Source: Candidatus Poribacteria bacterium
Lineage (GTDB): Bacteria > Poribacteria > WGA-4E > WGA-3G
Length of the DNA: 64,000 bases
Direction: 5' to 3'
Assembly (NCBI GenBank): GCA_965197475.1
Contig: CBDANF010000003.1
Span: forward strand, 544,001-608,000
Position 1 is the stretch's first letter, and each line of letters starts with the position of its first letter. Under the pieces are notes generated by a model. The model was not told the DNA's origin. It searched no databases and saw only the letters and a list, made by a program, of their open reading frames with translations. The position numbers were made by a program, and so were the translations under genes. Positions 9,695 to 48,574 of the stretch are shown in pieces.

Positions 9695-9699
9695 TTTTT

Positions 9700-14232: not shown

Positions 14233-14416
14233 CTTTACGAAATTCTGGTCTAAAAAATCGATGGCACTTCATTGATTATGCAATTTTAGATATACCATAT
14301 CACCGTGAACACCTGTGGGTTTTGTGTTGGTTATCTGTATCGTTATATTCCTTTTAGGTATATTCAAAACCCTATACCCACTGTAAGTGTAAATGAATTT
14401 GGTGTTATAGTTGTTT

Positions 14417-28017: not shown

Positions 28018-28247
28018 TCCTTCCTTGTGCTATTACGCGCTCATCTTGTCCCGAATCCTTATAAATTACTTTATCATTGCAAAAGACAGCGACATGTTCT
28101 GGAATTAGTGCCTGTCTAACTACTGTTGAGTAATCCATGTTGTGTGGTTTCACACGGGCAATCCTAATTACTCTTTTGATTAATTGATTGCCAACAACTT
28201 GCGTGTAATCTTTCTATACGATCTAACTTGTGAGGAGCAAAATACTA

Positions 28248-29504: not shown

Positions 29505-29552
29505 CCAGTTACCACGCACACAACGTGCTACTACATTTAAGGAGACATAAAA

Positions 29553-31508: not shown

Positions 31509-31533
31509 TAATCAGTACCAAGGAGGAAAATAA

Positions 31534-34500
31534 ATGTGGTCAAAAATCACCGAAGTTTCACTCAGGAATAGGCTCCTTGTTATTTGTGGACTCATCGCTG
31601 CAGTAATTATCGGCTTCAGGATGTTTCAAACAGCACCAATTGACGTTTATCCCGATATCAATCCACCCCGGATTACTGTGCTGACTGAAGCGCATGGGTG
31701 GTCCCCCGAAGAGATGGAGACCCTTGTTACGTTACCGATCGAAAGCTCAATGAACGGTGCGCCCGATGTTACACGGGTTCGTTCATCATCAGCAATCGGT
31801 TTGTCGCTTGTTTTCGTTGAATTTGAATGGGGGATGGATATTTTCCTGGCGCGACAGATGGTCTCTGAACGACTCCAACTCGTTGGACCGAATTTGCCGG
31901 AAGGCGTTGATGCCCCAATAATTCTACCCACCTCTTCCCTGTTAGGGGAAATTCTGGAATATGCACTTATTGATGAATCAGAAGAAAAACAAAAACTTGA
32001 CCCGATGGAGATGCGCGATATAGCAGATTGGGTGATCCGTTATCGGCTGCAATCAAAGGGCGGTATCGCCAATGTGATTAACATCGGTGGTTATATCAAG
32101 CAATTTCAGGTCTTCGTCAATCCTGAACGGTTGGTAAGTTACGGTATTTCACTTGAAGATGTTGCACATGCACTTGAAAAGAGCAATGATAACGCTGCAG
32201 GTGGATTTCTTATTAAGGACACGCGTGAGTTGATGATTAGAGGGTTGGGACGGATTTCTTCGGTTGCTGACATTGAAAATGTTGTGATTGATGTCCGAGA
32301 ACACAACACACCTGTGCTCGTTAATGATGTCGCAACAGTGAGAATCGGGTCGTTACCAGAGATCCGCCGTGGTGCGGGGAGTCGAAATGGTGAAGAAACC
32401 GTTTTAGGCAAGGTAGTTAAGCAACCCGGCATCAATACGCTTACCCTCAGCGATAAAGTGGTTTCAGAACTGGACTCGCTGGAAAAATCGCTGCCAGAAG
32501 GAGTAAAAATTGAAGTTGAGTACGCGCAAGCTAACCTAATTCGGCGTGCTGTGGATACGGTCAAAGAAGCACTGCGGGATGGCGCAATCCTCGTTGTTGT
32601 TGTCCTGATCATCTTTCTTTTTAATATCCGCACCGCGTTGATTACTCTCACTGCTATTCCGTTATCGTTGATTATCGCGATCATCGTGCTGCTTTCACAG
32701 GGAGGCACTCTCAACATCATGACGCTCGCTGGCTTAGCGATTGCTGTCGGAATGGTGGTTGACGATGCGATTGTATACGTTGAAAACATCTTCAGACGAT
32801 TACAAGAGTATTTTCATCTGCGTGATTTAGGGAATGAAACTGACGAAACGCCAACGCAGGTGGTGACACGCGCAAGCGATGAGATGCGTGTATCTATAGT
32901 TTTTGCAACCTTAATTATTATCCTCGTGTTTTTACCGCTGTTCAGTCTCAGTGGGATTGAGGGCAGAATGTTCCGTCCGCTTGGTTGGGCAGTTGTAATT
33001 TCTATGGCAGCATCGCTACTCGTGGCTTTAACAGTGGTTCCTGTTTTAAGTGATCTACTGCTGGGACGCGTTAGAGATATACCGTTGCATGAACTCATTC
33101 CCATGGTTGACCCCTCAGAAAAACGGGGTCCGTTTACGTGGATAAAACGGGCTTATAACGCTTTTCGAAATCTTGTGGTGCGATGGCGGTTGTTTATTGT
33201 CAAATTGGCACCCGACTCGGATGTTGAAACTGCCTTGACACTTCAACCTGTGGTCATGTGGATCAAACGCGCTTATCGTCCTATTCTATCATTGGTGATT
33301 CGTTTACGTTGGGTTGTTGTAGCAGTTGCGCTCTTACTGGTAATATTAACTTGCGCATCGATTCCTCGTTTAGGTAGGGAATTTTTACCCGTGATGGATG
33401 AGGCAACGTTCACAATCAGCGTGTTTTCACCTCCCGGGACCTCGCTGAATGAATCTACACGTATCGGTCGAGAAATGGAAATTAGACTGGACGAAGAAAT
33501 TCCAGAAGTGACAAGCGTCAGCAGTCGAACCGGGCGCGCTGAAGCGGACGAACACGCGCACGATGTGAATACCCATGAAATCGTGGTCAATTTTGATCCG
33601 CCAGATAAACGTGAGAAAACACGTGAAGACCTCCTCGTTGAAGTGCGGGAGTTGCTTTCCACCGAAAACTTTCCGGGGGTCCAGGTATCCGTTGGACAAC
33701 CGATTCAACACCGCCTTGATCATCTTTTGTCCGGTGTTAGCGCGCAAGTGGCATTGAAACTCTTCGGCCCCGATCTTGACATGCTAAGGCAAAAAGCAGA
33801 AGACATTGAAGCAGTTATGTCGGAGATTGATGGTGTTGCGGATTTACAGGTTGAGCAGCAGGTGCAGATTGAACAACTTCAGATTAAAGTCAAGCGTTTT
33901 GAAGCAGCGCGCTACGGCTTAAGCGTCCAAGACATCACGCATTTCGCAGAAGGGGCTTTCAAAGGCGAAACAGTCAGTCAGATCATTCAGGGACAGCGGC
34001 AGTATGACCTCGTCGTCCGCATTGACCCGACACTTGTCACTACCGTTGAATCGTTCGGCAACCTCAAACTTCGAACGCCTTCAGGCGCATTTATTCCATT
34101 GAAACAGGTGGCAGATGTCAGCTTTGGTTTCGGACCTAATACCATCAATCGTGAGAACGTTTCTCGACGTATCGTGATTCAATGCAACGTGCAGGATAGA
34201 GACCTCGGTAACTTTATTGATGAAGTCAAAAAAGAAATTGAGGCACATGTTGATATACCTGAAGAATATTTCCTCACGTATGGTGGACAGTTTGAAAGTC
34301 AACAGCGCGCACAAAGACGTATTCTAATTCAAACCGGTTTCGTTTTTATTGGTATCTTTATTTTACTGTATCTTGCGATGGGTTCAGTCCGGCTTTCGAT
34401 ATTGGTAATCCTGAATTTACCGTTGGCGTTAATAGGTGGTGTTGTCAGTGTCTTTCTTACAGGTGGCGTGTTGAGTATTCCATCTATGGTTGGTTTTATT

Positions 34501-34815
34501 CTATTGTTCGGCATTGCTGTGCGAAATGGCATCATCTTGGTTTCACATATCAATGCGCTTCGTTCAGAAGGCATACCGCTATATGATGCTGTGATGAAGG
34601 GTGCTTCGGAACGGATTAGTCCTGTCTTAATGACAGCTTTAACCACAGGACTTGGGATGCTACCGCTCGCGCTTGCACACGGCTCCGGTGCGGAACTCCA
34701 GAAACCGCTTGCTATTGTCATCAGTGGTGGCATGATTACCGCCACCTTTTTGACGCTGCTTGTTTTACCAGCGTTGTATTACCTTGTTGAAAAACGCGGT
34801 GCTGAAGAATTGTAA
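31534..34815 (+). CDS. czcA: CusA/CzcA heavy-metal RND permease
   Basis: DVYPDI, GMVVDDAIVYVENI, IEGRMFRPL, PVLMTALT, GAELQKPLA. Confidence 0.9.
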   Translation: MWSKITEVSLRNRLLVICGLIAAVIIGFRMFQTAPIDVYPDINPPRITVLTEAHGWSPEEMETLVTLPIESSMNGAPDVTRVRSSSAIGLSLVFVEFEWGMDIFLARQMVSERLQLVGPNLPEGVDAPIILPTSSLLGEILEYALIDESEEKQKLDPMEMRDIADWVIRYRLQSKGGIANVINIGGYIKQFQVFVNPERLVSYGISLEDVAHALEKSNDNAAGGFLIKDTRELMIRGLGRISSVADIENVVIDVREHNTPVLVNDVATVRIGSLPEIRRGAGSRNGEETVLGKVVKQPGINTLTLSDKVVSELDSLEKSLPEGVKIEVEYAQANLIRRAVDTVKEALRDGAILVVVVLIIFLFNIRTALITLTAIPLSLIIAIIVLLSQGGTLNIMTLAGLAIAVGMVVDDAIVYVENIFRRLQEYFHLRDLGNETDETPTQVVTRASDEMRVSIVFATLIIILVFLPLFSLSGIEGRMFRPLGWAVVISMAASLLVALTVVPVLSDLLLGRVRDIPLHELIPMVDPSEKRGPFTWIKRAYNAFRNLVVRWRLFIVKLAPDSDVETALTLQPVVMWIKRAYRPILSLVIRLRWVVVAVALLLVILTCASIPRLGREFLPVMDEATFTISVFSPPGTSLNESTRIGREMEIRLDEEIPEVTSVSSRTGRAEADEHAHDVNTHEIVVNFDPPDKREKTREDLLVEVRELLSTENFPGVQVSVGQPIQHRLDHLLSGVSAQVALKLFGPDLDMLRQKAEDIEAVMSEIDGVADLQVEQQVQIEQLQIKVKRFEAARYGLSVQDITHFAEGAFKGETVSQIIQGQRQYDLVVRIDPTLVTTVESFGNLKLRTPSGAFIPLKQVADVSFGFGPNTINRENVSRRIVIQCNVQDRDLGNFIDEVKKEIEAHVDIPEEYFLTYGGQFESQQRAQRRILIQTGFVFIGIFILLYLAMGSVRLSILVILNLPLALIGGVVSVFLTGGVLSIPSMVGFILLFGIAVRNGIILVSHINALRSEGIPLYDAVMKGASERISPVLMTALTTGLGMLPLALAHGSGAELQKPLAIVISGGMITATFLTLLVLPALYYLVEKRGAEEL

Positions 34816-35013: not shown

Positions 35014-35137
35014 ACAGAGCCATTCAATTGTCGATTTTTTACACGTTTATCCGAAAAGTCGCGATTCGGAGATCGCTCCTGCAGAGGAAAGACCGTTAGC
35101 AGAAAGTAGCAACTACTTGAGAATTGAATGGCTCTGT
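35014..35137. repeat. 124-bp MITE, family M2, complete copy
   Basis: 16-bp TIR ACAGAGCCATTCAATT / AATTGAATGGCTCTGT; internal GCGATTCGGAGATCGC hairpin; left-truncated copies end at 39579 and 48489. Confidence 0.85.
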
Positions 35138-35363
35138 CTATAAAAAGAAAATTGGTAGATCTGTATCTACGAGTAAATTCAGGGAAATGGTGTAAATACC
35201 TAAAATTTTGCGAATTTTTAGAAAAAAGTTGAAATTTCTGTAACCTATCTTGCAATACATAACGTTGAATAAGGTATATATGGATATCATGCACGTGCAA
35301 CACAAATTTGTAGTGAGGAAGTTACACCGTCGTTAACCATATTTTGCGTAAGGGGATTTAACA

Positions 35364-35513
35364 ATGAAAAACCGAGATATGAATACCACAATCCAGAAAG
35401 TGACCACGCTGGATGCCTGCCACCTGAGCAGGATTTGCTCACGCAGCATACATCGGTTGGCGAATTTTAACTATAAGTTAATACCCCCCCCCCCCCCACT
35501 TCACATTCGTTAA
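35364..35513 (+). CDS. Putative leader peptide containing a C14 tract
   Basis: RBS AAGGGG, ATG 35364, MKNRDMNTTIQ...KLIPPPPPLHIR*; downstream GC hairpin plus T-rich run at ~35572-35628. Confidence 0.4.
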   Translation: MKNRDMNTTIQKVTTLDACHLSRICSRSIHRLANFNYKLIPPPPPLHIR

Positions 35514-35714
35514 TTTCAATCAATTTATTGGACAAGGTCTTATTGCAGACGTTAGCAGCTGCGATATCTTCGCGCCCGCACGCGCGCTCCGTCTCACACG
35601 GAGTGTCTCGTCGCGGGCTTTTGTTGTTTGTGGAAATAGACGCGATTTATGCTGAATCGTGTCTGATAATTGTTTTAGTTTTACTTGAAAAATTTTAACG
35701 GAGGAGATATAATT

Positions 35715-36158
35715 GTGAAAAAGAAATTTTTTACAGCAAATGTTGATGTGGCAGCTATAGCTGCATTCGGTGGACTTACCGCTATCTCGTTCTTCGCACT
35801 CTTTTTTGAGGAACACGGAATCCGCCTCAGTATCGTTGCACTCGCTATCTCGCTTTGGGGATTCTTGTCCTTAAAACAGATGGATACGGAACAGGAGACA
35901 CAGCGTGTTGAAAAAACCTCGTCTGTTTTTCACAAACCGCAACATCGGAAAAACAGGCGGAGACTCATCACTGCAGTGGTTCTCATTTTGATTAGCGGGG
36001 TTATTCTGTCCGGTGCTATTAAAATGACACGCGCAACACAGATGGATAAACTTGACTGCACAGAACAACCCCGATCTGACAGTATCATATTGGAAAAACA
36101 GGAAACGCCTTGTCCAAAATCAACCATACTGCCCTGCTCGCTGGACGCAGCGGAATAA
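35715..36158 (+). CDS. Small membrane protein (three hydrophobic segments), gene X
   Basis: RBS GGAGGAG before GTG 35715; hydrophobic segments. Confidence 0.6.
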   Translation: MKKKFFTANVDVAAIAAFGGLTAISFFALFFEEHGIRLSIVALAISLWGFLSLKQMDTEQETQRVEKTSSVFHKPQHRKNRRRLITAVVLILISGVILSGAIKMTRATQMDKLDCTEQPRSDSIILEKQETPCPKSTILPCSLDAAE

Positions 36159-36193
36159 CAGGGATAAACAATCCTAATTCGGAGGATATTTTG

Positions 36194-37036
36194 ATGAAAC
36201 GCAAACTTTACTGGGGACTCGGTGTCCTCATTATTCTACTGATCGGTGTTAGTGCCGTGTTGGTAATCCGACACGAAATGGCGGTACACAAGCAACTCAA
36301 AGCCAATTTAGATGCAGCGAATAAACTGCTTGAAGCACAGAACAAGCCATCAGAAGTGCCGGCTGAAAAAGGGCATGTTCACGATGATGGCACTTTTCAC
36401 GTAGGCGAACATGGCGATCCGATAGTGGAACAAGACGACCCCACGGGTGAACAAAATGAACCCCTAAAACCACCACCATCACGAGACTTCGAACCCGTCC
36501 AAATACAGATACCAGAAGGTATAACAGACCCCGATGTGTTGGCAGCGTGGGAACGACTTGACTACATCGCCAATAATATTTGGGACTGGGGTGGTGTGCC
36601 ATCGCAAGAGACAGAAGAACTGATCGCACAACTTATGCCACCGCCAGATGGGTTTTCGGGTCCCAGCGGACACAGCGATGCCGAAGAGACCATAAATCTA
36701 CTCGGCAGCTTGGATAGAAACGACCCGCGCTCCGCAGAAGTCATGGTGACTTATTACTGTGAGAATATTATCGGGGGGCTTGGTCCACGAAATGCGATAA
36801 TAGATATAGGACCGCCTGCCGTGCCACTGCTGATACCCTATCTGTTTGAAGATGGAAATGCAGAAGCCGTTGCCGCTTTAGGTGGGATAGTCGTAAAGCA
36901 TCGTAAGGAATTAGGGGGTATTGTAGACCATATCATTATTCCAAAATTGGAAGAATATGCGGCAATAGAAGACCCGCCAGGTAAGATGTATTATCCGAGA
37001 AAGTGGGCGCGAGAAGCCCTTGAACTTTTGAAATAA
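36194..37036 (+). CDS. Membrane-anchored protein A1 (MKRKLYWG leader, His-rich motif, HEAT-like C-terminus)
   Basis: RBS GGAGG, N-terminal TM, GHVHDDGTFH, IGPPAVPLLI. Confidence 0.75.
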   Translation: MKRKLYWGLGVLIILLIGVSAVLVIRHEMAVHKQLKANLDAANKLLEAQNKPSEVPAEKGHVHDDGTFHVGEHGDPIVEQDDPTGEQNEPLKPPPSRDFEPVQIQIPEGITDPDVLAAWERLDYIANNIWDWGGVPSQETEELIAQLMPPPDGFSGPSGHSDAEETINLLGSLDRNDPRSAEVMVTYYCENIIGGLGPRNAIIDIGPPAVPLLIPYLFEDGNAEAVAALGGIVVKHRKELGGIVDHIIIPKLEEYAAIEDPPGKMYYPRKWAREALELLK

Positions 37037-37066
37037 CCGAAATCTATATATGAAAGGAGAAATCCG

Positions 37067-38875
37067 ATGAAAGTTCGTTATGTTTTCTACATGCTATTAC
37101 TTGTTATCTGTGTGTTAATTCCGTTTCATTTGAGTTCCACAGTAATATCGTTTCATTCGCAGACACCTTGTATTCGTATCAAATCGTGGTCTGTCGGACA
37201 AAGTTCGGGTTATTATGGTAAAGAGAAACTCGCAATAAACATTGGGTCGTTCATTACGAATTCAGAACAGACGTGTTGTGTGCATGTATCGGTGGGTTAT
37301 TGTGATGACCAACCTTCGCAGACCAACATAATGTATCCGATTACTTCGTTTGGATATGAGTTGTCTATGAGTCATGGGTTCGTAGTAGAAAAGGCGGTTT
37401 ATAGTGTGAGTGGTCCGGATGCTGCGTTGTTTGACCCGGCCACAAGTTTTTCTGTGAGTGCGAAGTTTAAGGGACCCAAGGATGAGGAGGAGCTTGTCTC
37501 ATCGTGTAACGGAAATAATGGTCGCGATAACAAACCGATGTGGGTCAAGGTGAAGTTTATTGGCTACTACGGGACGGATCTCGATAACCAAAAGTCCGTT
37601 TCAGTTTCGGGACAGTGGGTACAAGATACAAAAGACAGGATACGGCAGGAATATGTGGATATGACACCACCCGATAGTAGAGCCGAATTGCCGGTGCCTG
37701 GCAGATCGTCATTTGTTTCCACAATCTCAACCGACAACGGTGTGGATCGATGGAATACGGGGCATTATAGTAGTTTCATGATAGATGATGGATTGAAAGG
37801 GAAAAAGGCAGATTGGCTCGCGGAAGTTAATAAAGAACGCAAAAGTAACGGTTTATCCGCGTTTACGGATGCTGATTTTCAGGTGAACAGTGCGTATCGC
37901 AATCCGTATCATCAGCGTTTTCATGTCGGCAAGGGGGCACTTGCTTCATTTCATAGTCGTCATCCGTTTGGCGATGCGTTAGATGTTCACACCCCCGATG
38001 TAAATGGCAATGGCACAGAAGAGCAAGTCTATAAGAATTATGCTAACAGTGCCGATGGCGTTGCTATGCAGCGAGCCGCCGAGTCTAAGTCTGTTGGTGC
38101 TTTGTGGACAGCTTCTTATCTATACTATAGTACGCACACGCATGCGGATTGGACGCTGCGCGTGAAAGATGGCGGGAGTTGGCCTCCGCCGAATGGCACT
38201 GTCTATTCTCCACCGTGTAACATAGATGGAACAGCATCAAGTGGTCCGTATGTGACGGGGGCAACAACGGGCAATGCAGAAGAAACGAATGAAGGTCAAA
38301 CGGGACAGGATACCGGTGGTAGTGAACAGACCACAGATGCTCCTGCCATCGGCCCCTGTGGACATACCTATTGGCTAGGTTCATCCTCGGACTACGACCA
38401 TAGATCAGAAACTTGGGGGTGTGGACATACGATCTATGTTTGTCAATCCAGTTCCCATTCGCTGCAAGCGAGTTGTTCCGAAACGAATGCGAATGGCGAT
38501 AGTTGTACGGTGACAAGTTTCTATGCGTGTCAGACGCATACACACGAGTATCCTGCTGCGCCGAGTTTTGCGCCCAGTTTATCCGTCGGTTCAAGCAGCT
38601 ATAGTGCGGGGAGTTCTTTGTCTCCGGTTGTCACATCTGATGCGCCTATTTACGGTGCGCATTTGTTTGTGCGTGCGCCGGGGGATACAAGCACCTATGG
38701 CACAAAAATAGGCTGGTTTCCTGGGGGTCGCACGACACAGACATTGACGTTGCCTTACACGTTTGCTGCTAATGCTGCGAGTGGCAGCTATAAGATCACT
38801 GCGCGTGTGTATCCGTGGAATGGTGATGCGTGGGGCGATCCGGATTATTTATCTGACTACGTGTCGGTTGAGTAG
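37067..38875 (+). CDS. Secreted protein P1 with M15/Hedgehog-type Zn-peptidase domain, Cys/His repeat and beta-rich C-terminus
   Basis: Signal peptide; NSAYRNP..SRHPFGDALD..HTHAD (SxH-x6-D..HxH pattern); CGH..H..CGH..C..H. Confidence 0.7.
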   Translation: MKVRYVFYMLLLVICVLIPFHLSSTVISFHSQTPCIRIKSWSVGQSSGYYGKEKLAINIGSFITNSEQTCCVHVSVGYCDDQPSQTNIMYPITSFGYELSMSHGFVVEKAVYSVSGPDAALFDPATSFSVSAKFKGPKDEEELVSSCNGNNGRDNKPMWVKVKFIGYYGTDLDNQKSVSVSGQWVQDTKDRIRQEYVDMTPPDSRAELPVPGRSSFVSTISTDNGVDRWNTGHYSSFMIDDGLKGKKADWLAEVNKERKSNGLSAFTDADFQVNSAYRNPYHQRFHVGKGALASFHSRHPFGDALDVHTPDVNGNGTEEQVYKNYANSADGVAMQRAAESKSVGALWTASYLYYSTHTHADWTLRVKDGGSWPPPNGTVYSPPCNIDGTASSGPYVTGATTGNAEETNEGQTGQDTGGSEQTTDAPAIGPCGHTYWLGSSSDYDHRSETWGCGHTIYVCQSSSHSLQASCSETNANGDSCTVTSFYACQTHTHEYPAAPSFAPSLSVGSSSYSAGSSLSPVVTSDAPIYGAHLFVRAPGDTSTYGTKIGWFPGGRTTQTLTLPYTFAANAASGSYKITARVYPWNGDAWGDPDYLSDYVSVE

Positions 38876-38913
38876 TTGTCCTTTAGATTAGAAAGGGGCG
38901 TGTCTTGGAACTG

Positions 38914-38951
38914 ACAGGCAGATATTCTTTTGGGTATCTGCCTGTTTTTTG
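38914..38951 (+). terminator. Intrinsic terminator-like hairpin between P and C (also at 45846-45883)
   Basis: ACAGGCAGATA-loop-TATCTGCCTGT followed by T run. Confidence 0.65.
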
Positions 38952-38965
38952 TAAAGGAGCACTTA

Positions 38966-39439
38966 ATGAAAGTAAAATCCTTCATAACAGGTCTTATCAT
39001 CCCGTTACTCCTCACTGCTGGTATCATTCTATATCTGCAACATGCACCAAAATTGGCACCCGCAACTGAAATTCCGCATCAAAAAGATGTAATAGCAAAT
39101 GTGGAACAACCGAAGGTAAACGCTGTCAATTCCAACACAACTGCAGAAAACCCTGACGCGTTCTATCAGTTGATTATTGACAACAACATCTTCCGTCCAC
39201 TCGGTTGGCAACCGCCCAGAAAACAGCCGGACTATACCCTTATCGGCACAACAGTTTCACAGAACGCAGCAGATTCAAAGGCGTTTATATTGGAGCGGCG
39301 TTCAAATCGCATGCATATCGTCAAAGTTGGGGACACCCTTGACGATGCGCGTGTGAAAGAGATTCAATCGAAACGTGTCACACTGCATGAAGCAGGAAAA
39401 GACATAATCCTGCATGGCGGTAGGCTGCAGTTTTTCTAA
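38966..39439 (+). CDS. GspC/PilP-like membrane-anchored protein C1
   Basis: TM, NNIFRP, YTLIGT..AFI..IVKVGDTL..RVKEIQSKRVTL resembles the T2SS GspC homology region. Confidence 0.6.
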   Translation: MKVKSFITGLIIPLLLTAGIILYLQHAPKLAPATEIPHQKDVIANVEQPKVNAVNSNTTAENPDAFYQLIIDNNIFRPLGWQPPRKQPDYTLIGTTVSQNAADSKAFILERRSNRMHIVKVGDTLDDARVKEIQSKRVTLHEAGKDIILHGGRLQFF

Positions 39440-39596
39440 CATCTTCCTCTTCCCACAAGGTTATTTAGTTTTAGACTTTTTGTCCAGTTTATCCGAAAAG
39501 TCGTGATTCGGAGATCGCTCCTACAGCGGAAAGACCGTTATCAGAAAGTAACAACTACTTGAGAATTGAATGGCTCTGTCCAACCCAGAAAAAACC

Positions 39597-39625
39597 TTGA
39601 ATGATAGAAAAAAATATGCTATAAT
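39597..39625 (+). promoter_or_regulatory. Sigma70-like promoter of the regulator, duplicated at 48507
   Basis: TTGAAT-17bp-TATAAT with extended TG. Confidence 0.65.
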
Positions 39626-39664
39626 ACTCTCAAACCTGAAATTTGTAAGAAGAGGGAAAGTCAC

Positions 39665-39877
39665 GTGAATTGCGAAATGAGCGAAACACGCATGCGTATC
39701 CTACAACTTTTGAAGATGCGTTCCAGCATGACGGTCAGTCAACTAATTGAAGCACTCCACATCAGTGACATGGGGGTCAGACAACATCTCACTATCCTTC
39801 AAGAAGAAGGTTTGGTTGAATATCATCAAGAAAAGCATGGACGCATCGAAATAACAGGGATAAACAATCCTAATTAG
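39665..39877 (+). pseudogene. Truncated copy of SufR-like regulator (HTH only)
   Basis: Near-identical to the 48575 gene up to ...EKHGR, then switches sequence at TGGACGC. Confidence 0.92.
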
Positions 39878-39889
39878 GAGGATATTTTG

Positions 39890-41260
39890 ATGAAACGCAA
39901 ACTTTATTGGGGGTTTGCAGCCCTCATTATCCTGATTATCGGCACTGCAGGTGTGTTGTTCATTCAACACAACCGCGCCGAAATGGTGCTCCTTGAAGCG
40001 TTGTCGGATGCCGATAACAGCGATAGTTCACAACAGCAGCCCGCCCAACGTGGCGTTGGTTCTACTGACTACAAAGCCCCCCCGCTCGGTGAAACAGACG
40101 ATACAGGGTATTGGGAAGGAAACACATGGCATCAGAAACCGGCACCCAAACCGAAGAAAAAAGGGTGGTGGAAGACAGGGGATACAAGAAAATATCTTGA
40201 GATGCTTGCCATTACCGGTAACATCCCAAAAGAATTCAGGCCCGACTCCAAAGCTTTTGCCCGGTGGATCATTGCCGAACACCCCTATTCCCAAGCAGCC
40301 CTTGAAGCGAGATTAGTGCTGGGTGGTTGGGGGACATCATATCTAATGGATGCCCTGAAATACCATCCAACATCACCATTACTACACGCAAAAATAGCAG
40401 CCTCTACTTCCAGTCGTCGTTATCCCGAAAAGGTTGTCGCCTTTGCAAAAAAAAAAGCACTCCGCCTGCTTCCCACGACTACCGAAGATACTTCCTATAG
40501 AGGAATATGGAATTCCCCTGCTGTGCTAAGCCACGAATCTTTAGGTCAGGCATATCAGCGATTGGGCGATTACAAATCTGCGTTAGTTCACCTCAAAGCC
40601 GCACAACGTCTTTACAAAACTGGAATTGGGGACGATGACTTAAACATGGACGGATACGAACTGATGTCTAAGTGGATCGCTGGGATAGAAGCGGGGAAGC
40701 CGCTCATAGGACCGAATCCGAAGCCGCATCCGGAGCCGTCCGCCGACTTTCCTTTATCTACTTCACAACCGTCCGCACCTGTGGCCCCTGTAGATGCCGC
40801 CGAACTCCCGCCTGTGCCGTTTGATTTCCCCGCAAGCCCGTCTGATGATATGTTCCGTGCCCCGAACACGTCCTCTTTGTCTCCTTCTGATCAAGGGATG
40901 CGTGAGCGTGAGGCCGCTAAGCAAGCCCATTCAGCGTTTGCCAAACGGCAGCAGCAAGAGTTTGGTGATTTTCTTCGGTGGATGGCGCGTATAGAACAGG
41001 CGAAGTCGCCTGCGGATTTAGAAGATTTTTTGATGCGTGAGATGGCGAAGCACCTGCAAGGTGGTGCTTCCGAGTTCACGCCGGATCGTTTGATCCATGC
41101 GTTTGAAATGGTCAATCGCCACGGAGACGCAGCGGGGATGGTGCATCTGCAAGCGTTGGATCCCGATATTGCGAAAGCGATGTCGCGTCACCCTCAAAGT
41201 AAACGTGTGCCACCGCGCACCGCGCCTGTGCGTCCGAAAACAGTTCATAACCCGAAATAG
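39890..41260 (+). CDS. Membrane-anchored TPR-like protein B1
   Basis: MKRKLYWG leader, PPLGET..GYWEGNTWH, LGQAYQRLGDYKSALVHLK, Pro-rich linker, conserved C-terminal domain. Confidence 0.75.
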   Translation: MKRKLYWGFAALIILIIGTAGVLFIQHNRAEMVLLEALSDADNSDSSQQQPAQRGVGSTDYKAPPLGETDDTGYWEGNTWHQKPAPKPKKKGWWKTGDTRKYLEMLAITGNIPKEFRPDSKAFARWIIAEHPYSQAALEARLVLGGWGTSYLMDALKYHPTSPLLHAKIAASTSSRRYPEKVVAFAKKKALRLLPTTTEDTSYRGIWNSPAVLSHESLGQAYQRLGDYKSALVHLKAAQRLYKTGIGDDDLNMDGYELMSKWIAGIEAGKPLIGPNPKPHPEPSADFPLSTSQPSAPVAPVDAAELPPVPFDFPASPSDDMFRAPNTSSLSPSDQGMREREAAKQAHSAFAKRQQQEFGDFLRWMARIEQAKSPADLEDFLMREMAKHLQGGASEFTPDRLIHAFEMVNRHGDAAGMVHLQALDPDIAKAMSRHPQSKRVPPRTAPVRPKTVHNPK

Positions 41261-41274
41261 AAAGGAGATTTCTC

Positions 41275-42632
41275 ATGAGACATAAAATGTATTGGGGGCT
41301 TGGAGCTCTCATAATCCTGATTATCGGCACAGCCGGTGTGTTGTTCATGCGGCACAATCGCGCTGAAATGGCACGCTTTGAAAAAGCGTTAGCAGATGCC
41401 GATAACCGGCTACAAGAAAGCGATAGTTCACCCCAGCAGCCCGCCCAACGTGGCGTTGGCTCTCCAACGTATAAACCGCCCCCGCTGGGTGAAACAGAAG
41501 ATACAGGTCACTGGGACGGCAACGTGTGGCATCAAACCGCACCCAAACCGAAAAAGAAAAAAGTGTTGGGCTTGTGGTCACGCGAGATGACTCTGCGAGA
41601 TTACTACGCTGCGATGCCTCAGGGAAATCACAACAATAGACAGACAAAGTTTATGGAAAGCGTTGTTCGAAAACAACCCTATTCAGAGGCGGGCTTTGAA
41701 GCGATGTACAATTTAGCATCAATTAACTCACGTTACAGCAGCGCAGATTATATTGAGAACCTAAAGGGAGTGCTGAAATACCATCCGGAGTCGCCACGCG
41801 TACTCTCAAAGTTAGCGTGGTATACTTCTCCATCTGATTCAAAGTTCCCACCTGAAGAGTCAATAGCGTATGCGAAAAAGGCACTTCGTCTGCTTCCCAA
41901 TAGTTCGGAGGATAATACATGGTTTAAGCTATGGCAGTCCCCCGCTGTGAACATTCATGGGGCATTAGGCTTTGCGTATCAGCGGGTAGGCGATTACAAA
42001 GCTGCGTTGGTTCACCTCAAAACGATACAAAGTCTGCTGAACATGCCTACAAAGCGACTTTGAAGCATATAGCTGCAATAGAAGCGGGGAAGCCGCTCAT
42101 AAAACCCGATCCGAAGCCGCAGCCGGATGCTGCCACCGTTTCGTCTCTATTCCCTCCAGTGCCCGAGCCGGTGTCAGCCCCTAAAGATGCGTCAGATTTT
42201 CCTCCCGTGCCTTCTGATCATCCGGGTTTTGACCCTAACAATCCTTCTTTCGTTCCGTCCGATAAATCTGTTCGTTCGAAACAAGCGTCGGCGCAAGCGC
42301 GTGCGGACTTTGCGCGTCATCAGCAGCAAGAGTTTGGTGATTTTCTGCGGTGGATGGAACGGATAGAGCAAGCGAAGTCGCCTGCAGATTTAGAAGATTT
42401 TTTGATGCGTGAGATGGCAAAGCAGCTGCAAGGCGGTCAATCCGAGTTCACACCGGACCGGTTGATCCGTGCGTTTGAAACGGTCAATCGTCATGGTGAA
42501 ACCGCAGGGATGTCACAGCTGCAACAGTTGGATCCCGATATTGCGAAAGCGATGTCGCGTCACCCTCAAAGTAAACGTGTGCCACCGCGCACCGCGCCTG
42601 TGCGTCCGAAAACAGTTCATAACCCGAAATAG
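41275..42632 (+). pseudogene. TPR-like protein B2, frameshifted near 42040
   Basis: ORFs 41275-42063 and 41931-42632 together match B1 end to end. Confidence 0.8.
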
Positions 42633-42646
42633 AAAGGAGATTTCTC

Positions 42647-43084
42647 ATGAGACATAAAATGTATTGGGGGCTTGGAGCTCTCATAATCCTGATTATCGGC
42701 ACAGCCGGTGTGTTGTTCATGCGGCACAATCGCGCTGAAATGGCACGCTTTGAAAAAGCGTTAGCAGATGCCGATAACCGGCTACAAGAAAGCGATAGTT
42801 CACCCCAGCAGCCCGCCCAACGTGGCGTTGGCTCTCCAACGTATAAACCGCCCCCGCTGGGTGAAACAGAAGATACAGGTCACTGGGACGGCAACGTGTG
42901 GCATCAAACCACACCCAAACCGAAAAAGAAAAAAGTGTTTGGCTTGTGGTCACGCGAGATGACTCTGCGAGATTACCGCGCGGCGATGCCCCATGGAAAT
43001 CACGACAATAGACAGACAAAGTTTATGGAAACACCTTGTCCAAGATCAACCACACCACCTTGCCCGCTGGACGCAGCGGAATAA
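42647..43084 (+). pseudogene. B3: 5' copy of B2 fused at GGAAA to an X-type 3' end
   Basis: Near-identical to B2 up to RQTKFME, then TPCPRSTTPPCPLDAAE like the end of gene X. Confidence 0.85.
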
Positions 43085-43119
43085 CAGGGATAAACAATCC
43101 TAATTCGGAGGGTATTTTG

Positions 43120-43968
43120 ATGAAACGCAAACTTTACCGGGGACTCGGTGTCCTCATTATACTACTCATCGGTGTTGGTGCCGTGTTGGTGATCCGGCAC
43201 GAAATGGCGATACACAAGCAACTCAAAGCCAATTTAGATGCAGCGAATAAACTGCTTGAAGAACAGAACAAGCCATCAGAAGTGCCGAATGAAAAAGGGC
43301 ATGTTCACGAAGATGGCACTTTTCACGTAGGCGAACATGGCGATCCGATAGTGGAACAAGACGACCCCACGGGTGAACAAGATGAACCCCTAAAACCACC
43401 ACCATCACGAGACTTTGAACCCGTCCAAATACAGATACCAGAAGGTATAACAGACCCCGATGTGTTAGCAGCGTGGGAACGACTTGACTACATCGCCAAT
43501 AATATTTGGGACTGGGGTGGTGTGCCATCGCAAGAGACAGAAGAACTGATCGCACAACTTATGCCACCGCCAGATGGGTTTTCGGGTCCCAGCGGACACA
43601 GCGATGCCGAAGAGACCATAAATCTACTCGGCAGCTTGGATAGAAACGACCCGCGCTCCGCAGAAGTCATGGCGACTTATTTCTGTGAGAATATTATCGG
43701 GGGACGTGGTCCGATATATGCGTTGGCAGAGATAGGACCCCCAGCCGTGCCACTCCTGATAAATTACCTGTTTTCTACTGATGGAAACGTAGGAAGGGCA
43801 GTTGCCGCTTTAGAAGAAATTAGCGTAAAGCATCGTAAGGAATTAGGGGGTATTGTAGACCACATCATCATTCCAAAATTCGAAGAATATGCGGCAATAG
43901 AAGACCCGCCAGGTAAGATGTATTATCCGAGAAAGTGGGCGCGAGAAGCCCTTGAACTTTTGAAATAA
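43120..43968 (+). CDS. Membrane-anchored protein A2
   Basis: Paralogue of A1 with a divergent patch at ~43670-43885; leader reads LYRG instead of LYWG. Confidence 0.75.
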   Translation: MKRKLYRGLGVLIILLIGVGAVLVIRHEMAIHKQLKANLDAANKLLEEQNKPSEVPNEKGHVHEDGTFHVGEHGDPIVEQDDPTGEQDEPLKPPPSRDFEPVQIQIPEGITDPDVLAAWERLDYIANNIWDWGGVPSQETEELIAQLMPPPDGFSGPSGHSDAEETINLLGSLDRNDPRSAEVMATYFCENIIGGRGPIYALAEIGPPAVPLLINYLFSTDGNVGRAVAALEEISVKHRKELGGIVDHIIIPKFEEYAAIEDPPGKMYYPRKWAREALELLK

Positions 43969-43998
43969 CCGAAATCTATATATGAAAGGAGAAATCCG

Positions 43999-45807
43999 AT
44001 GAAAGTTCGTTATGTTTTCTACATGCTATTACTTGTTATCTGTGTGTTAATTCCGTTTCATTTGAGTTCCACAGTAATATCGTTTCATTCGCAGACACCT
44101 TGTATTCGTATCAAATCGTGGTCTGTCGGACAAAGTTCGGGTTATTATGGTAAAGAGAAACTCGCAATAAACATTGGGTCGTTCATTACGAATTCAGAAC
44201 AGACGTGTTGTGTGCATGTATCGGTGGGTTATTGTGATGACCAACCTTCGCAGACCAACATAATGTATCCGATTACTTCGTTTGGATATGAGTTGTCTAT
44301 GAGTCATGGGTTCGTAGTAGAAAAGGCGGTTTATAGTGTGAGTGGTCCGGATGCTGCGTTGTTTGACCCGGCCACAAGTTTTTCTGTGAGTGCGAAGTTT
44401 AAGGGACCCAAGGATGAGGAGGAGCTTGTCTCATCGTGTAACGGAAATAATGGTCGCGATAACAAACCGATGTGGGTCAAGGTGAAGTTTATTGGCTACT
44501 ACGGGACGGATCTCGATAACCAAAAGTCCGTTTCAGTTTCGGGACAGTGGGTACAAGATACAAAAGACAGGATACGGCAGGAATATGTGGATATGACACC
44601 ACCCGATAGTAGAGCCGAATTGCCGGTGCCTGGCAGATCGTCATTTGTTTCCACAATCTCAACCGACAACGGTGTGGATCGATGGAATACGGGGCATTAT
44701 AGTAGTTTCATGATAGATGATGGATTGAAAGGGAAAAAGGCAGATTGGCTCGCGGAAGTTAATAAAGAACGCAAAAGTAACGGTTTATCCGCGTTTACGG
44801 ATGCTGATTTTCAGGTGAACAGTGCGTATCGCAATCCGTATCATCAGCGTTTTCATGTCGGCAAGGGGGCACTTGCTTCATTTCATAGTCGTCATCCGTT
44901 TGGCGATGCGTTAGATGTTCACACCCCCGATGTAAATGGCAATGGCACAGAAGAGCAAGTCTATAAGAATTATGCTAACAGTGCCGATGGCGTTGCTATG
45001 GAGAATGCTGCCACAGATAAGTCTGTTGGTGCTTTGTGGACAGCTTCTTATCTATACTATGGTACGCACACGCATGCGGATTGGACGCTGCGCGTGAAAG
45101 ATGGCGGGAGTTGGCCTCCGCCGAATGGCACTGTCTATTCTCCACCGTGTAACATAGATGGAACAGCATCAAGTGGTCCGTATGTGACGGGGGCAACAAC
45201 GGGCAATGCAGAAGAGACGAATGAAGGTCAAACGGGACAGGATACCGGTGGTAATGAACAGACCACAGATGCTCCTGCCATCGGCCCCTGTGGACATACC
45301 TATTGGCTAGGTTCATCCTCGGACTACGACCATAGATCAGAAACTTGGGGGTGTGGACATACGATCTATGTTTGTCAATCCAGTTCCCATTCGCTGCAAG
45401 CGAGTTGTTCCGAAACGAATGCGAATGGCGATAGTTGTACGGTGACAAGTTTCTATGCGTGTCAGACGCATACACACGAGTATCCTGCTGCGCCGAGTTT
45501 TGCGCCCAGTTTATCCGTCGGTTCAAGCAGCTATAGTGCGGGGAGTTCTTTGTCTCCGGTTGTCACATCTGATGCGCCTATTTACGGTGCGCATTTGTTT
45601 GTGCGTGCGCCGGGGGATACAAGCACCTATGGCACAAAAATAGGCTGGTTTCCTGGGGGTCGCACGACACAGACATTGACGTTGCCTTACACGTTTGCTG
45701 CTAATGCTGCGAGTGGCAGCTATAAGATCACTGCGCGTGTGTATCCGTGGAATGGTGATGCGTGGGGCGATCCGGATTATTTATCTGACTACGTGTCGGT
45801 TGAGTAG
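43999..45807 (+). CDS. Secreted M15-type peptidase protein P2
   Basis: Identical to P1 except QRAAES>ENAATD, YST>YGT and GSE>GNE. Confidence 0.7.
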   Translation: MKVRYVFYMLLLVICVLIPFHLSSTVISFHSQTPCIRIKSWSVGQSSGYYGKEKLAINIGSFITNSEQTCCVHVSVGYCDDQPSQTNIMYPITSFGYELSMSHGFVVEKAVYSVSGPDAALFDPATSFSVSAKFKGPKDEEELVSSCNGNNGRDNKPMWVKVKFIGYYGTDLDNQKSVSVSGQWVQDTKDRIRQEYVDMTPPDSRAELPVPGRSSFVSTISTDNGVDRWNTGHYSSFMIDDGLKGKKADWLAEVNKERKSNGLSAFTDADFQVNSAYRNPYHQRFHVGKGALASFHSRHPFGDALDVHTPDVNGNGTEEQVYKNYANSADGVAMENAATDKSVGALWTASYLYYGTHTHADWTLRVKDGGSWPPPNGTVYSPPCNIDGTASSGPYVTGATTGNAEETNEGQTGQDTGGNEQTTDAPAIGPCGHTYWLGSSSDYDHRSETWGCGHTIYVCQSSSHSLQASCSETNANGDSCTVTSFYACQTHTHEYPAAPSFAPSLSVGSSSYSAGSSLSPVVTSDAPIYGAHLFVRAPGDTSTYGTKIGWFPGGRTTQTLTLPYTFAANAASGSYKITARVYPWNGDAWGDPDYLSDYVSVE

Positions 45808-45897
45808 TTGTCCTTTAGATTAGAAAGGGGCGTGTCTTGGAACTGACAGGCAGATATTCTTTTGGGTATCTGCCTGTTTTTTGTAAAGGAGCACTTA

Positions 45898-46371
45898 ATG
45901 AAAGTAAAATCCTTCATAACAGGTCTTATCATCCCGTTACTCCTCACTGCTGGTATCATTCTATATCTGCAACATGCACCAAAATTGGCACCCGCAACTG
46001 AAATTCCGCATCAAAAAGATGTAATAGCAAATGTGGAACAACCGAAGGTAAACGCTGTCAATTCCAACACAACTGCAGAAAACCCTGACGCGTTCTATCA
46101 GTTGATTATTGACAACAACATCTTCCGTCCACTCGGTTGGCAACCGCCCAGAAAACAGCCGGACTATACCCTTATCGGCACAACAGTTTCACAGAACGCA
46201 GCAGATTCAAAGGCGTTTATATTGGAGCGGCGTTCAAATCGCATGCATATCGTCAAAGTTGGGGACACCCTTGACGATGCGCGTGTGAAAGAGATTCAAT
46301 CGAAACGTGTCACACTGCATGAAGCAGGAAAAGACATAATCCTGCATGGCGGTAGGCTGCAGTTTTTCTAA
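45898..46371 (+). CDS. GspC/PilP-like protein C2
   Basis: Identical protein to C1. Confidence 0.6.
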   Translation: MKVKSFITGLIIPLLLTAGIILYLQHAPKLAPATEIPHQKDVIANVEQPKVNAVNSNTTAENPDAFYQLIIDNNIFRPLGWQPPRKQPDYTLIGTTVSQNAADSKAFILERRSNRMHIVKVGDTLDDARVKEIQSKRVTLHEAGKDIILHGGRLQFF

Positions 46372-46642
46372 CATCTTTCTCTTCCCACAAGGTTATTTAG
46401 TTTCGCAATAAGTAGTTTTGGACTTGCAACAAACATGTAAAAATCGCTACAAACACAGATGTAGACTACATTTCCACTTGTTTTAATTGTGCAACTATGA
46501 TACAATATAGATAAGAAAGTAGGGGGTTGGTAGCCCCCTAAATGAACACAAAAAGCGAGTTGCTTTTTGACGGTTCTAATCTTATCTGGTATTATATCAG
46601 AAATCCGTCAGAAAAAGCAACTCCTATTTCAAGGAGTATCTG

Positions 46643-47527
46643 ATGGATTTATTGAAGGTAATGGAGCGTTTTCCTGACCAAGAAGCATGTATTGAGCATT
46701 TGGAATATATTCGGTGGCGTGGTGAACCAAGATGTCCGCATTGTGATAGTCTAAACGTTGCGGAACGGACAGAGACGGAATTGGGACGCATCGGACGCTG
46801 GCAATGCCATGATTGCACTGCTACTTTCAAGGTGACGTGTGGCACGGTGTTTCACGGGACAAAGATAGCACTTCAGAAGTGGTTTTTGGCGATCTCGTTG
46901 ATTGTGAATGCGAAGAAGTCGTTATCCAGTTACCAGTTGAGTCGTGATTTAGACTTGAATCAGAAAACTGCATGGTTTATAATGACTCGTATCCGTGCTG
47001 AAATGGCAAAGAAAGGTAGCAACGTGCTATTACAAGGCATCATAGAGGCTGATGAAACTTACATCGGGGGTAAACCTCGCAAGCCGAACAAGAAAGCAGA
47101 TGCGGAGCCTGCCAAGCGTGGTCGTGGCACTGATAAAGACGCAATCATCGGGGCTGTCCAACGCGGTGGGAAAGTTGTAGCACAACTTGCAAGGGATTTG
47201 ACAGGACGGACTATTTTAGACTTTATCCGAAGAGCCGTGAAAGTTCAGGATTCGGAGTTGATGACCGATGAATATAATGCTTATCTCGCACTCGGTAGAG
47301 ATATGAAGCATCATATCATCAATCATCAAGAGCAATTTGTTGACGGTGATGTCCACACAAACACGATTGAGGGGTTTTGGTCGCTTCTCAAACGCGCTTG
47401 GTATGGTTCACATCACCACTATTGGACTGAATATACGCCCCTGTATGTCGCAGAGGCGTGCTACAAGTATAACTATAGGAGCATTGACAGCATCTTTGAT
47501 AAGTTTGTTAATGAGAGTATGAGATGA
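46643..47527 (+). CDS. IS1595 transposase
   Basis: CPHC..CHDC, EADETYIGG, MTDEY, HTNTIEGFWS. Confidence 0.93.
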   Translation: MDLLKVMERFPDQEACIEHLEYIRWRGEPRCPHCDSLNVAERTETELGRIGRWQCHDCTATFKVTCGTVFHGTKIALQKWFLAISLIVNAKKSLSSYQLSRDLDLNQKTAWFIMTRIRAEMAKKGSNVLLQGIIEADETYIGGKPRKPNKKADAEPAKRGRGTDKDAIIGAVQRGGKVVAQLARDLTGRTILDFIRRAVKVQDSELMTDEYNAYLALGRDMKHHIINHQEQFVDGDVHTNTIEGFWSLLKRAWYGSHHHYWTEYTPLYVAEACYKYNYRSIDSIFDKFVNESMR

Positions 47528-47757
47528 GTGAAACTAAAGGTACCCAGGGCGTTTCTTTGCATGATCCGCGGGTTCAGGCGGTGCTTGCAGCACAGATGGC
47601 GGAAGCTCGAATGTCTTTTGATCCGAATTCAAAGCTTCGAGAATATTTTGGAACAATGTATAGCAATCTGACTCGGATTGGAAGATGCCCAAATTGTAGA
47701 GAAAAGTTGATTGGTTCGATCCATGAGCGTCTACATGTTTCAACAGAGTCAGATTGA
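47524..47757 (+). CDS. Hypothetical passenger protein (CPNC motif)
   Basis: ATGA overlap with the transposase stop. Confidence 0.4.
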   Translation: MSETKGTQGVSLHDPRVQAVLAAQMAEARMSFDPNSKLREYFGTMYSNLTRIGRCPNCREKLIGSIHERLHVSTESD

Positions 47758-47917
47758 ACAAGTTTGATTCGTTGTTCTTGATGATCACAATTTCATCATA
47801 AATATTAAGATTTACGGCTAATGGACAAAATCCAGTGATTTGTTCAGGTTTTGGAAATATGATTAACATGATAGTTCCTTTGTGAGTTAGAGGGGACAGG
47901 GGCACCTCGTTGTTGGG

Positions 47918-48154
47918 TTAGTCTGTTTTCTTTCGGTTTACATACCGTTTGATACACCAAGCGGTGAATCTTGCCGACAGAAAAATAATAGGTATGCCGA
48001 CAATTTGGGCTACCAATGCTACTAATGCGTATTCTCGAGCACCGAGAACAGTGACTATAGATCCAATGATAGCGAAAAACAAAAGCCAGTTTTTCAACGT
48101 GTATTTTTGCTTATAGTAAGCAAATACAAGAAGTGGCCACACTAAAAGTACCAT
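47918..48154 (-). CDS. Small hydrophobic passenger membrane protein
   Basis: RBS AAGGG; 2-3 TM segments and a basic tail. Confidence 0.55.
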   Translation of the reverse strand: MVLLVWPLLVFAYYKQKYTLKNWLLFFAIIGSIVTVLGAREYALVALVAQIVGIPIIFLSARFTAWCIKRYVNRKKTD

Positions 48155-48574
48155 GATATTCCCTTATGGTAAGGGTTGTACGTGTTTTGTTTATAGGATC
48201 ACGTTGTTTAACCTTAACGTTGTTCCCGATCTCATTCGGTTTGGTAGGGACTGCCTCAAGCGAGACAGATGAGATTCCCTACCAACAACGTTAGGATAGT
48301 ATAACATGTGGGAGAAAAGAGAGTCAAGTGAAAAATTCAATGGCTTGTTGCAAGTCCAAAACTACTTATTGCGTTTAGTTTTAGACTTTTTGTCCAGTTT
48401 ATCCGAAAAGTCGCGATTCGGAGATCGCTCCTACAGCGGAAAGACCGTTATCAGAAAGTAACAACTACTTGAGAATTGAATGGCTCTGTCCAACCCAGAA
48501 AAAACCTTGAATAATAGAAAAAAATATGCTATAATACTCTCAAACCTGAAATTTGTAAGAAGAGGGAAAGTCAC

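Follow-up and report, generated by a model that had tools for sequence, protein, structure and literature searches.

The 64,000-nucleotide stretch of Candidatus Poribacteria DNA analysed here (contig CBDANF010000003.1, positions 544,001 to 608,000; hereafter the window) carries, in tandem as assembled, two nearly identical copies of a three-gene unit that we call A, P and C. P is predicted to be a secreted zinc peptidase of the LAS/M15 type, and A to be a membrane-tethered periplasmic protein built of helical repeats. A and P form a Poribacteria-specific pair. We propose, with a probability of roughly 55%, that P is a secreted peptidoglycan peptidase effector and A its cognate periplasmic immunity protein, and that the pair is diversified by mosaic recombination. 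The evidence for this reading includes the linkage and phyletic pattern of the two genes, the clustering of the differences between the two copies into one patch in each gene, and the recurrence of such diversification in other genomes of the phylum. Poribacteria, abundant symbionts of sponges, are uncultivated, and there is little knowledge of how they compete or interact.

A and P as a linked pair in Poribacteria

We surveyed 151 genomes of the phylum, calling P at E ≤ 1e-10 and A at E ≤ 1e-15. P is found in 33/151 genomes and A in 42/151, and every genome with P also has A (33/33). We compared 23 Poribacteria loci that contain P: in 20 of them A is the gene immediately upstream, in two it follows immediately downstream, and the remaining locus is cut at a contig end. 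Three A-like genes stand directly downstream of P at L028 and L039, four further A paralogs lie 3' of P at L019, and the tandem order A-P A-P is seen at L030 and L032. Outside Poribacteria, A was found beside P at none of ten loci, and the P matches there cover the catalytic core only. Both families are almost confined to Poribacteria; a set of 1.84 billion proteins yields 86 representatives of P at E ≤ 1e-3, and all family members of A and P whose source names we saw are called 'hypothetical protein'. Upstream of A there is often a small membrane protein whose Cys-rich periplasmic tail has a PPCPLDA ending (L017, L021–L024, L027, L030 and L037); a homolog of U, the small membrane protein upstream of A1 in the window, is found at L029.

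The two genes are not equally numerous. Nine genomes have A without P at the survey thresholds. Two of these A-only genomes hold many copies, eight in G017 and, dispersed among unrelated genes, eleven in G109, and in G079, which has no P, five A-type solenoid domains follow one another in a single frame of 1134 amino acids (L075:4805-8209, contig C129). Five of the nine were searched again at E ≤ 1e-3: four gave no P, and the fifth holds a 56-residue remnant of P right after A. A is also in surplus in many genomes that have both (A:P of 10:2 in G027, 6:1 in G025, 7:3 in G074 and 11:4 in G008). P itself is present in 19 of the 38 genomes of the window's genus, is multicopy, and several copies contain stop codons; insertion sequence (IS) elements are found near the module. 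Strict co-occurrence, orphan and surplus copies of A, arrays, fusions and decayed copies of P together make up a toxin/immunity-like pattern, not one that a housekeeping regulator or a chaperone would be expected to leave. An effector with a cognate immunity protein or partner had been suggested in an earlier note, made from the letters of the window; the genomic behaviour of A and P fits this, and comparative genomics lends support to the core of the idea.

Localised differences between the two copies

The repeated segments (36101–39471 and 43027–46403) are 3.37 kb long and differ, in a local alignment of 3377 columns, at 79 positions: 73 substitutions and two 3-nucleotide indels. The list of open reading frames (ORFs) gives the gene order A, P, C in both units. 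The main features are as follows, all on the plus strand.

36194–37036, plus strand: A1; transmembrane (TM) helix, His-rich linker and predicted periplasmic HEAT/ARM-like solenoid (ORF, model)
36747–36949, plus strand: hypervariable patch of A1, codons 186–255 (alignment, random-placement test, family variability)
37067–38875, plus strand: P1; signal peptide, Ig-like domain, LAS/M15 Zn-peptidase domain, Cys/His-rich module and C-terminal beta domain
38069–38085, plus strand: hypervariable patch of P1, residues 335–340, QRAAES (alignment, random-placement test, family variability, model)
38930–39439, plus strand: C1; TM-anchored, GspC-HR-like domain, probable start 38966 (matches to PF11356 and NF041515 below their cut-offs)
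43120–43968, plus strand: A2, with its patch at 43673–43881 (ORF, alignment)
43999–45807, plus strand: P2, with its patch ENAATD at 45001–45017 (ORF, alignment)
45862–46371, plus strand: C2, 169 amino acids like C1 and without any difference from it (ORF, alignment)

P1 and P2 are both 602 amino acids long and differ at 13 nucleotides, 10 of which fall within 38069–38085. Residues 335–340 read QRAAES in P1 and ENAATD in P2, with four non-synonymous codons and one synonymous; the other differences are S355G, S419N and one synonymous change. The two A frames (36110–37036 with a probable ATG at 36194, and 43036–43968 with a probable ATG at 43120) differ by 51 substituted nucleotides and two 3-nucleotide indels, and 34 of the 51 substitutions fall within 36747–36891. 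Codons 186–255 hold 16 non-synonymous and 11 synonymous codon changes together with two one-codon indels; the first 117 codons hold seven non-synonymous changes and six synonymous ones. When the differences were placed at random, none of 200,000 trials put at least 10 of 13 inside 17 nucleotides of P, and none of 50,000 trials put at least 34 of 51 inside 145 nucleotides of A. The clustering is far beyond chance.

These results agree with much of what the earlier note had read from the sequence. It had described a module present twice and almost identical, with clustered differences; a QRAAES/ENAATD patch and an S-to-G change lying between two motifs of P; and a patch of substitutions and indels in a HEAT-like domain of A. 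The alignment and random-placement counts bear out the first, codon comparison the second, and the third is the patch of roughly 200 nucleotides that the alignment finds. Its left boundary has to be corrected: the module was said to start at 35364, and by alignment the edge of the repeat is at 36101. A further correction concerns the space between the two units, which is taken up by three TPR-type paralogs (39887–43084), here called T.

The A patch is rich in synonymous changes, and in P codons differ at several bases at once. Both speak for the import of diverged sequence, that is, for mosaic recombination, and the pattern points to this rather than to point mutation after a recent duplication. 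Mutagenesis by a diversity-generating retroelement was considered and rejected, as the changes in the P patch show no adenine specificity.

Comparable diversification is seen elsewhere in the phylum. The two P copies at L030 are 93.8% identical to one another, about 28% identical to the window P, and differ almost exclusively between the H-x6-D and H-x-H motifs; the A copies beside them are identical over the first 100 residues and then diverged throughout the solenoid. At L032 the catalytic domains of P and the solenoids of A have diverged (61% and 70% identity overall), and the Cys-rich C-terminus of P and the N-terminus of A are near-identical. The five A paralogs at L019 are block mosaics within the same patch, and in P0122, found in another assembly, an A2-like N-terminus is joined to an A1-type patch and the C-terminus is of a third variant. 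The exchange of patches that the earlier note had supposed is thus visible in L019 and P0122 and in the tandem pairs of L030 and L032. In another genome (L025), an A1-type patch in A is found together with a P1-type patch (RAAES) in P. The positions at which the window copies differ are among the most variable of their families even if the window rows are not counted (for A, p = 0.001; for P, p = 0.023). In a partial Mantel test on the close clade (n = 10), A-patch and P-patch distances correlate with r = 0.64, a value reached by none of 2000 permutations; this test over-calls on related sequences, so we count it as weak support.

Predicted proteins and proposed function

P is predicted to be made up of a signal peptide, an Ig-like beta-sandwich (residues 31–186), a LAS/M15 domain (about 208–371), a Cys/His-rich module (401–498) and a beta domain (499–602). 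In an alignment of 21 sequences, H299 and D306 of the zinc-ligand motif H-x6-D are invariant (21/21), H357, H359 and D361 of the downstream H-x-H/H-x-D motif, HTHADW, which would supply the third zinc ligand, are at least 90% conserved, and in the upstream SAYRNP R278 is invariant and S275 and Y277 are at least 90% conserved. An S-x-Y-R motif for the substrate carboxylate is a hallmark of PF08291-type sequences. The window P has no Pfam match at E ≤ 0.1 and no NCBIfam match. Among its 21 relatives, 15 match PF08291 (Peptidase_M15_3) at E ≤ 0.1, the best at 2.7e-6, and 11 match PF13539 (Peptidase_M15_4) at the same threshold; precomputed annotation places PF08291 on four of 20 database homologs.

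A model of P built from the 21-sequence alignment (mean predicted local distance difference test score, pLDDT, of 74) consists of a signal-peptide helix, the Ig-like sandwich at 31–186 and an alpha/beta domain at about 208–371. Compared with 48,161 chains, residues 208–371 find their best match in the Zn DD-peptidase 1lbu of Streptomyces (Z 6.6; root-mean-square deviation 3.2 over 110 residues), with ShhN (Z 6.5), Hedgehog (6.4), VldE (6.2), DacB (5.3) and Ply500 (5.2) behind it and VanX (4.9), MepA (4.8) and also VanY lower down. This list is modest in Z but coherent, and it agrees with the motifs. Foldseek of P against PDB returned nothing at E ≤ 1e-3, and a profile search of PDB sequences gave weak matches only, such as 8q2g, an L-Ala-D-Glu endopeptidase of the M15C type, at E 0.17. 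The SRH-x6-D and HTH motifs had led the earlier note to call P an M15-type zinc peptidase. Their conservation in the 21 relatives, the PF08291 matches and the best structural matches all concur with that call, and peptidoglycan peptides would be the most likely substrate. In the model the variable patch sits on a predicted helix, 329–339, between the H-x6-D and H-x-H motifs. The modules at 401–498 and 499–602 recur in other proteins of the same genome and vary freely among P homologs; leads from ESM Atlas for the C-terminus, under 0.9, are Ig-like or sorting-domain-like. Targeting or export may be the role of the Cys/His-rich and Ig-like modules at the C-terminus.

A has no Pfam match. Its model (pLDDT 85) has a long N-terminal TM helix after basic residues, and ten helices at 114–280 with pLDDT above 90. 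Between the membrane helix and the solenoid (residues about 100–281) A1 has a low-confidence, disordered, His-rich linker, GHVHDDGTFHVGEH, and its motif GHxHxDGTxHxGxH is conserved in most family members. Basic residues flanking a TM helix stay on the cytoplasmic side (the positive-inside rule); from those that precede its TM helix, A is predicted to be N-in/C-out with the solenoid in the periplasm. In structural comparison every top match of A is a HEAT/ARM/TOG solenoid, with Z from 9.3 to 8.0, below the level rated safe for repeats. Foldseek against PDB gave designed ARM proteins at E 0.04 and nothing at E ≤ 1e-3, and the ESM Atlas lead, under 0.9, is HEAT-like. The HEAT-like domain seen in A by the earlier note is accordingly predicted by model and matches alike as helical and HEAT/ARM-like. 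The first ~60 residues after the start are common to A, the T proteins and others. A co-fold of P(30–395) with A(55–281), using both alignments, scored 0.00 against a mark of 0.32, which says nothing for or against binding.

We suggest that the pair works as follows. P would leave the cytoplasm by Sec, fold in the periplasm and possibly exit the cell via the type II secretion system (T2SS). A, tethered to the inner membrane, would bind the peptidase domain of its cognate P and block it, shielding the producer's own sacculus and giving immunity to incoming P of the same type; cells that hold copies of A only would be protected as well. The specificity-determining contacts may be made by one short helix on the surface of P and by two or three of the helices in A. 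Recombination would shuffle short blocks of this contact surface and so create new P/A specificities, and extra A genes would pile up against foreign P. The two window copies would be alleles of one module, held near-identical by recombination outside the patches. If this is true, it is the first candidate antagonism/immunity system for Poribacteria, A would be a LAS-peptidase inhibitor of a new, tethered and HEAT-like type, and since its near-identical cognate pairs differ in a handful of residues, specificity would be directly testable.

A number of points weigh against this proposal. Binding of A to P and toxicity of P are both inferred, and all structural Z scores for P are below 8. With its 11 synonymous and 16 non-synonymous codons, the A patch looks like an imported diverged allele and not like demonstrable positive selection. 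The co-variation of patches across homologous loci, suggested as a check in the earlier note, is seen in the close clade and fails in the distant clade (n = 11; partial Mantel r = -0.25, p = 0.87) and in the set as a whole (n = 21; r = 0.02, p = 0.43). The enzyme domain of P is central and conserved, the variable parts are its non-enzymatic C-terminal modules, and A is upstream, unlike the arrangement in classical polymorphic toxins. In the window there are no contact-dependent delivery genes beside the module, and in P we identified no domain for crossing the outer membrane of a target. Finally, parallel cassettes of a T (TPR) protein, a metzincin and C raise the possibility that anchored helical proteins are generic chaperones or inhibitors and not immunity proteins of a conflict.

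The alternative that follows from this last point is that A, and by analogy T, is a tethered periplasmic inhibitor or chaperone that keeps a T2SS-bound zinc peptidase silent or export-competent, the target being something other than a bacterial competitor: host matrix, food bacteria or detrital cell wall. Periplasmic inhibitors do likewise for secreted serralysins. C and its relatives bear on this alternative. C1 matches PF11356 at E 9.6e-5 (22.7 bits, cut-off 27) and NF041515 at E 1.7e-8 (34.6 bits, cut-off 150), so that C appears weakly GspC-like. Its 169 residues end with the HR-like domain, and neither a PDZ nor a coiled-coil domain follows; searching PDB sequences with a profile of C found no GspC or PilP. 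The genome has at least 12 C paralogs, of which 7/12 match PF11356 at E ≤ 0.01, and the closer ones stand directly 3' of other secreted proteins that are themselves preceded by T-type genes (L061, L062, L064 and L065). The cargos at these four loci are mutually homologous, have a metzincin-like HEIGHCVNLGH motif, and carry the C-terminal modules of P at 80–84% identity. In outline, the cassettes at L061 (C3:3660000-3672000), L062 (C2:356000-368000), L064, L065 and L070 are made up of one or two TM-anchored, TPR-like homologs of T1, a secreted protein of 650–750 amino acids and a C paralog. The window contains no T2SS genes. The genome's only secretin (996 amino acids, six Secretin_N repeats) is encoded on a contig other than the window's (G000:C2:565000-580000, L071), next to T2SS J, K and PilM/GspL-like genes and a 419-amino-acid gene of no family. 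No C-like gene is present in the stretch examined around it; the 419-amino-acid gene upstream of the secretin was considered as a canonical GspC and rejected, not being C-like.

The recurring order of an anchored helical protein, a secreted zinc peptidase and a GspC-like protein is what speaks for an export helper, as do the N-terminal anchor common to A and T, the single secretin with its J/K/L-like genes, and a predicted P fold that matches Hedgehog N-domains no less well than a DD-peptidase. An export helper would be useless without its cargo, yet nine of the 151 genomes have A without P, with arrays that reach 11 copies and, in one case, five domains fused. The matched diversification of tandem paralogs is likewise unexpected for simple self-protection. 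Searched with a C-family hidden Markov model, only two of the 23 related A-P loci have C and 21/23 lack it, which places C outside the conserved module. We therefore consider this alternative unlikely, although it survives better than the others. The same finding tells against one element of the earlier note, where C was a private secretion adaptor of the pair: its GspC match is below cut-off, it is absent from 21/23 loci, and it also follows the metzincin-like cargo.

The cassettes also invite a bolder version of the effector and immunity proposal, which we regard as speculative and, taken as a whole, unlikely: a 'bacteriolysin' system of exchangeable parts fed by Sec and the T2SS, in which LAS-type P and metzincin-type cargo, two unrelated catalytic types, would each have an inner-membrane-tethered neutraliser (HEAT-like A or TPR-like T, with one shared anchor module), and would connect to the single secretin through cargo-linked GspC-like paralogs. 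Short, matched hypervariable patches of peptidase and neutraliser would then set strain-specific immunity and lead to kin discrimination in the sponge microbiome.

Layout of the assembled tandem and relation to known systems

The ends of the two units and the space between them contain the following features.

35685–36158, plus strand: U, a small membrane protein with a Cys-Pro ending, PCSLDAAE (ORF; a 48% identical homolog lies 5' of A in L029)
39464–39844, plus strand: copy of an intergenic region and the first ~90 ArsR-type codons, right end of unit 1 (98.7% identical to 48374–48754)
39887–41260, plus strand: T1, a TM-anchored TPR-like protein of 457 amino acids with the N-terminal anchor common to A
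41275–42632, plus strand: T2, a T1 paralog in two overlapping frames (41275–42063 and 41931–42632)
42647–43084, plus strand: T3', a truncated copy of the 5' part of T2 fused to the last U-like codons, left junction of unit 2
46404–48373, plus strand: IS1595-family element just 3' of C2, transposase at 46643–47527 (family matches, end repeats)

The left edge of the duplication cuts the last codons of U. In the duplication that gave T3', 41228–41659 and 42600–43031 match at 98%. The split of T2, set against the single 457-amino-acid frame of T1, is either a frameshift or a sequencing error. The IS1595-family element ends in perfect inverted repeats of 29 bp and is flanked by a target duplication of 8 bp, TTTAGTTT; past it comes the ArsR-type gene at 48575. 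The element looks intact and also has an unassigned minus-strand ORF of 123 amino acids (47534–47905). The 381-nucleotide copy at 39464–39844 includes one copy of a dispersed intergenic repeat of ~100 nucleotides, which in the window lies at 35045–35138, 39487–39580 and 48397–48490 and has at least 42 matches in the genome; its word depth in the sequencing runs is very high, and a further copy lies just 3' of the C paralog on contig 2.

The truncated ArsR copy, the T3' fusion and the IS1595 element at the unit ends give the two units distinct junctions. This bears on a second alternative, which concerns the arrangement and not the function of A and P: that the tandem is an assembly artefact in which two strain alleles of one A-P-C locus were set end to end. 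The source is a metagenome-assembled genome of 5.7 Mb in three contigs, 92.7% complete and with 6.97% contamination, which speaks for an artefact. The read evidence consists of short-word contigs from three runs of one study. Both patch variants are present in them, and one contig (X2, record 14) bridges the T3'/A2 junction at 43026/43027. Others mix variants of the two copies: X2 record 9 joins the P1 patch to the three downstream single-nucleotide variants of P2, and in X1 record 6 three A1 variants accompany the P2 patch. Another assembly has a third, mosaic allele, P0122. These observations speak for an artefact, but contigs from a short-word graph can mix variants by themselves and so cannot phase the copies. 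The unit-specific junctions (the target duplication of the IS included), the bridged 43026/43027 junction and the A-P A-P tandems of other genomes, among them L030 on a single-contig chromosome of 4.25 Mb, make an artefact improbable in our view.

The weakest alternative, endogenous wall remodelling in which P would cut the murein of its own cell, as a housekeeping or niche-specific enzyme, and A would be its membrane-bound regulator, would suit the predicted anchored, periplasmic A and the cellular LAS/M15 murein peptidases MepA, DacB and VanY among the structural matches of P, but we hold it to be very doubtful given the patchy presence of P (33/151 genomes, 19/38 in the genus), its often multicopy or disrupted state, the associated IS elements, its hypervariable patch (with that of A) and variable C-terminal modules, and the occurrence of A without P.

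Elsewhere in the window, directly upstream of the module, a three-gene resistance-nodulation-division efflux set (28230–34815) encodes an outer-membrane factor, an HlyD-type adaptor with a CusB-like domain and an AcrB-family pump. A transposase cluster at 7945–15345 (DDE_3, three IS1595-type, and IS3-type helix-turn-helix plus rve) is interleaved with two Laminin_G_3 proteins, and two tandem PhyH-family dioxygenase paralogs of 270 amino acids lie at 4364–5173 and 5305–6114.

In our literature search no paper connected Poribacteria with M15 peptidases or with polymorphic toxins. In other bacteria, wall-directed peptidase effectors that come with periplasmic immunity proteins are well known. Passages on type VI secretion system (T6SS) effectors in one study mention M15-like and MepA-like domains (PMC12135965), and table lines of another list M15 domains in T6SS loci (PMC10210955). 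As in T6SS pairs of the Tae/Tai type, the gene of what we take to be a wall peptidase acting in the periplasm adjoins that of a putative neutralising periplasmic protein, the partner is kept wherever the enzyme is present, and there are extra and orphan partner genes. Unlike these pairs, A-P has no T6SS or other contact-dependent marker beside the module, P has a Sec signal peptide, A is TM-anchored, HEAT/ARM-like and encoded upstream, and the A and P families are without named members.

Imm-HEAT immunity proteins, immunity arrays and peptidoglycan-directed toxins figure in those parts of an account of polymorphic toxin systems that we draw on (Zhang et al. 2012, PMC3482391). By the same parts, classical polymorphic toxins share with A-P recombination mosaicism, arrays and fusions of the immunity type and, if A is what we propose, helical-repeat immunity proteins. 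Their layout is a trafficking region conserved at the N-terminus, toxin domains that can be swapped at the C-terminus and an immunity gene on the downstream side. In A-P the enzyme domain is constant and central, the variation lies in short patches and in non-enzymatic modules at the C-terminus, and in 20 of 23 loci A precedes P; it is therefore not a classical polymorphic toxin.

We recognised no uptake domain in P. A third group for comparison is made up of bacteriolysins and bacteriocins with producer immunity, such as lysostaphin, zoocin A, pesticin with Pim, and colicin M with Cmi. As is proposed for A-P, they combine a secreted murein hydrolase, of the LAS superfamily or another, with a targeting domain and a dedicated immunity gene, and immunity of the Cmi type is, as predicted for A, membrane-anchored and periplasmic. 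They differ from A-P in their catalytic families (M23, lysozyme-like, phosphatase) and in the mechanisms of immunity, and we know of none in Poribacteria. The AprA/AprI and serralysin/Inh pairs resemble the proposed A-P pair in that an exported zinc peptidase and a small periplasmic inhibitor share one operon; inhibitors of the AprI/Inh type are, unlike A, soluble beta-barrels that are not polymorphic and form no orphan arrays.

C, lastly, is like GspC of the T2SS in its predicted build: a membrane anchor at the N-terminus and, after it, a beta domain of HR-like type. It differs in scoring below the curated cut-offs, in lacking PDZ and coiled-coil parts, and in being encoded outside a T2SS operon, with at least 12 dispersed paralogs, several of them 3' of cargo genes; so many cargo-linked GspC-like genes bear on how type II secretion selects its substrates.

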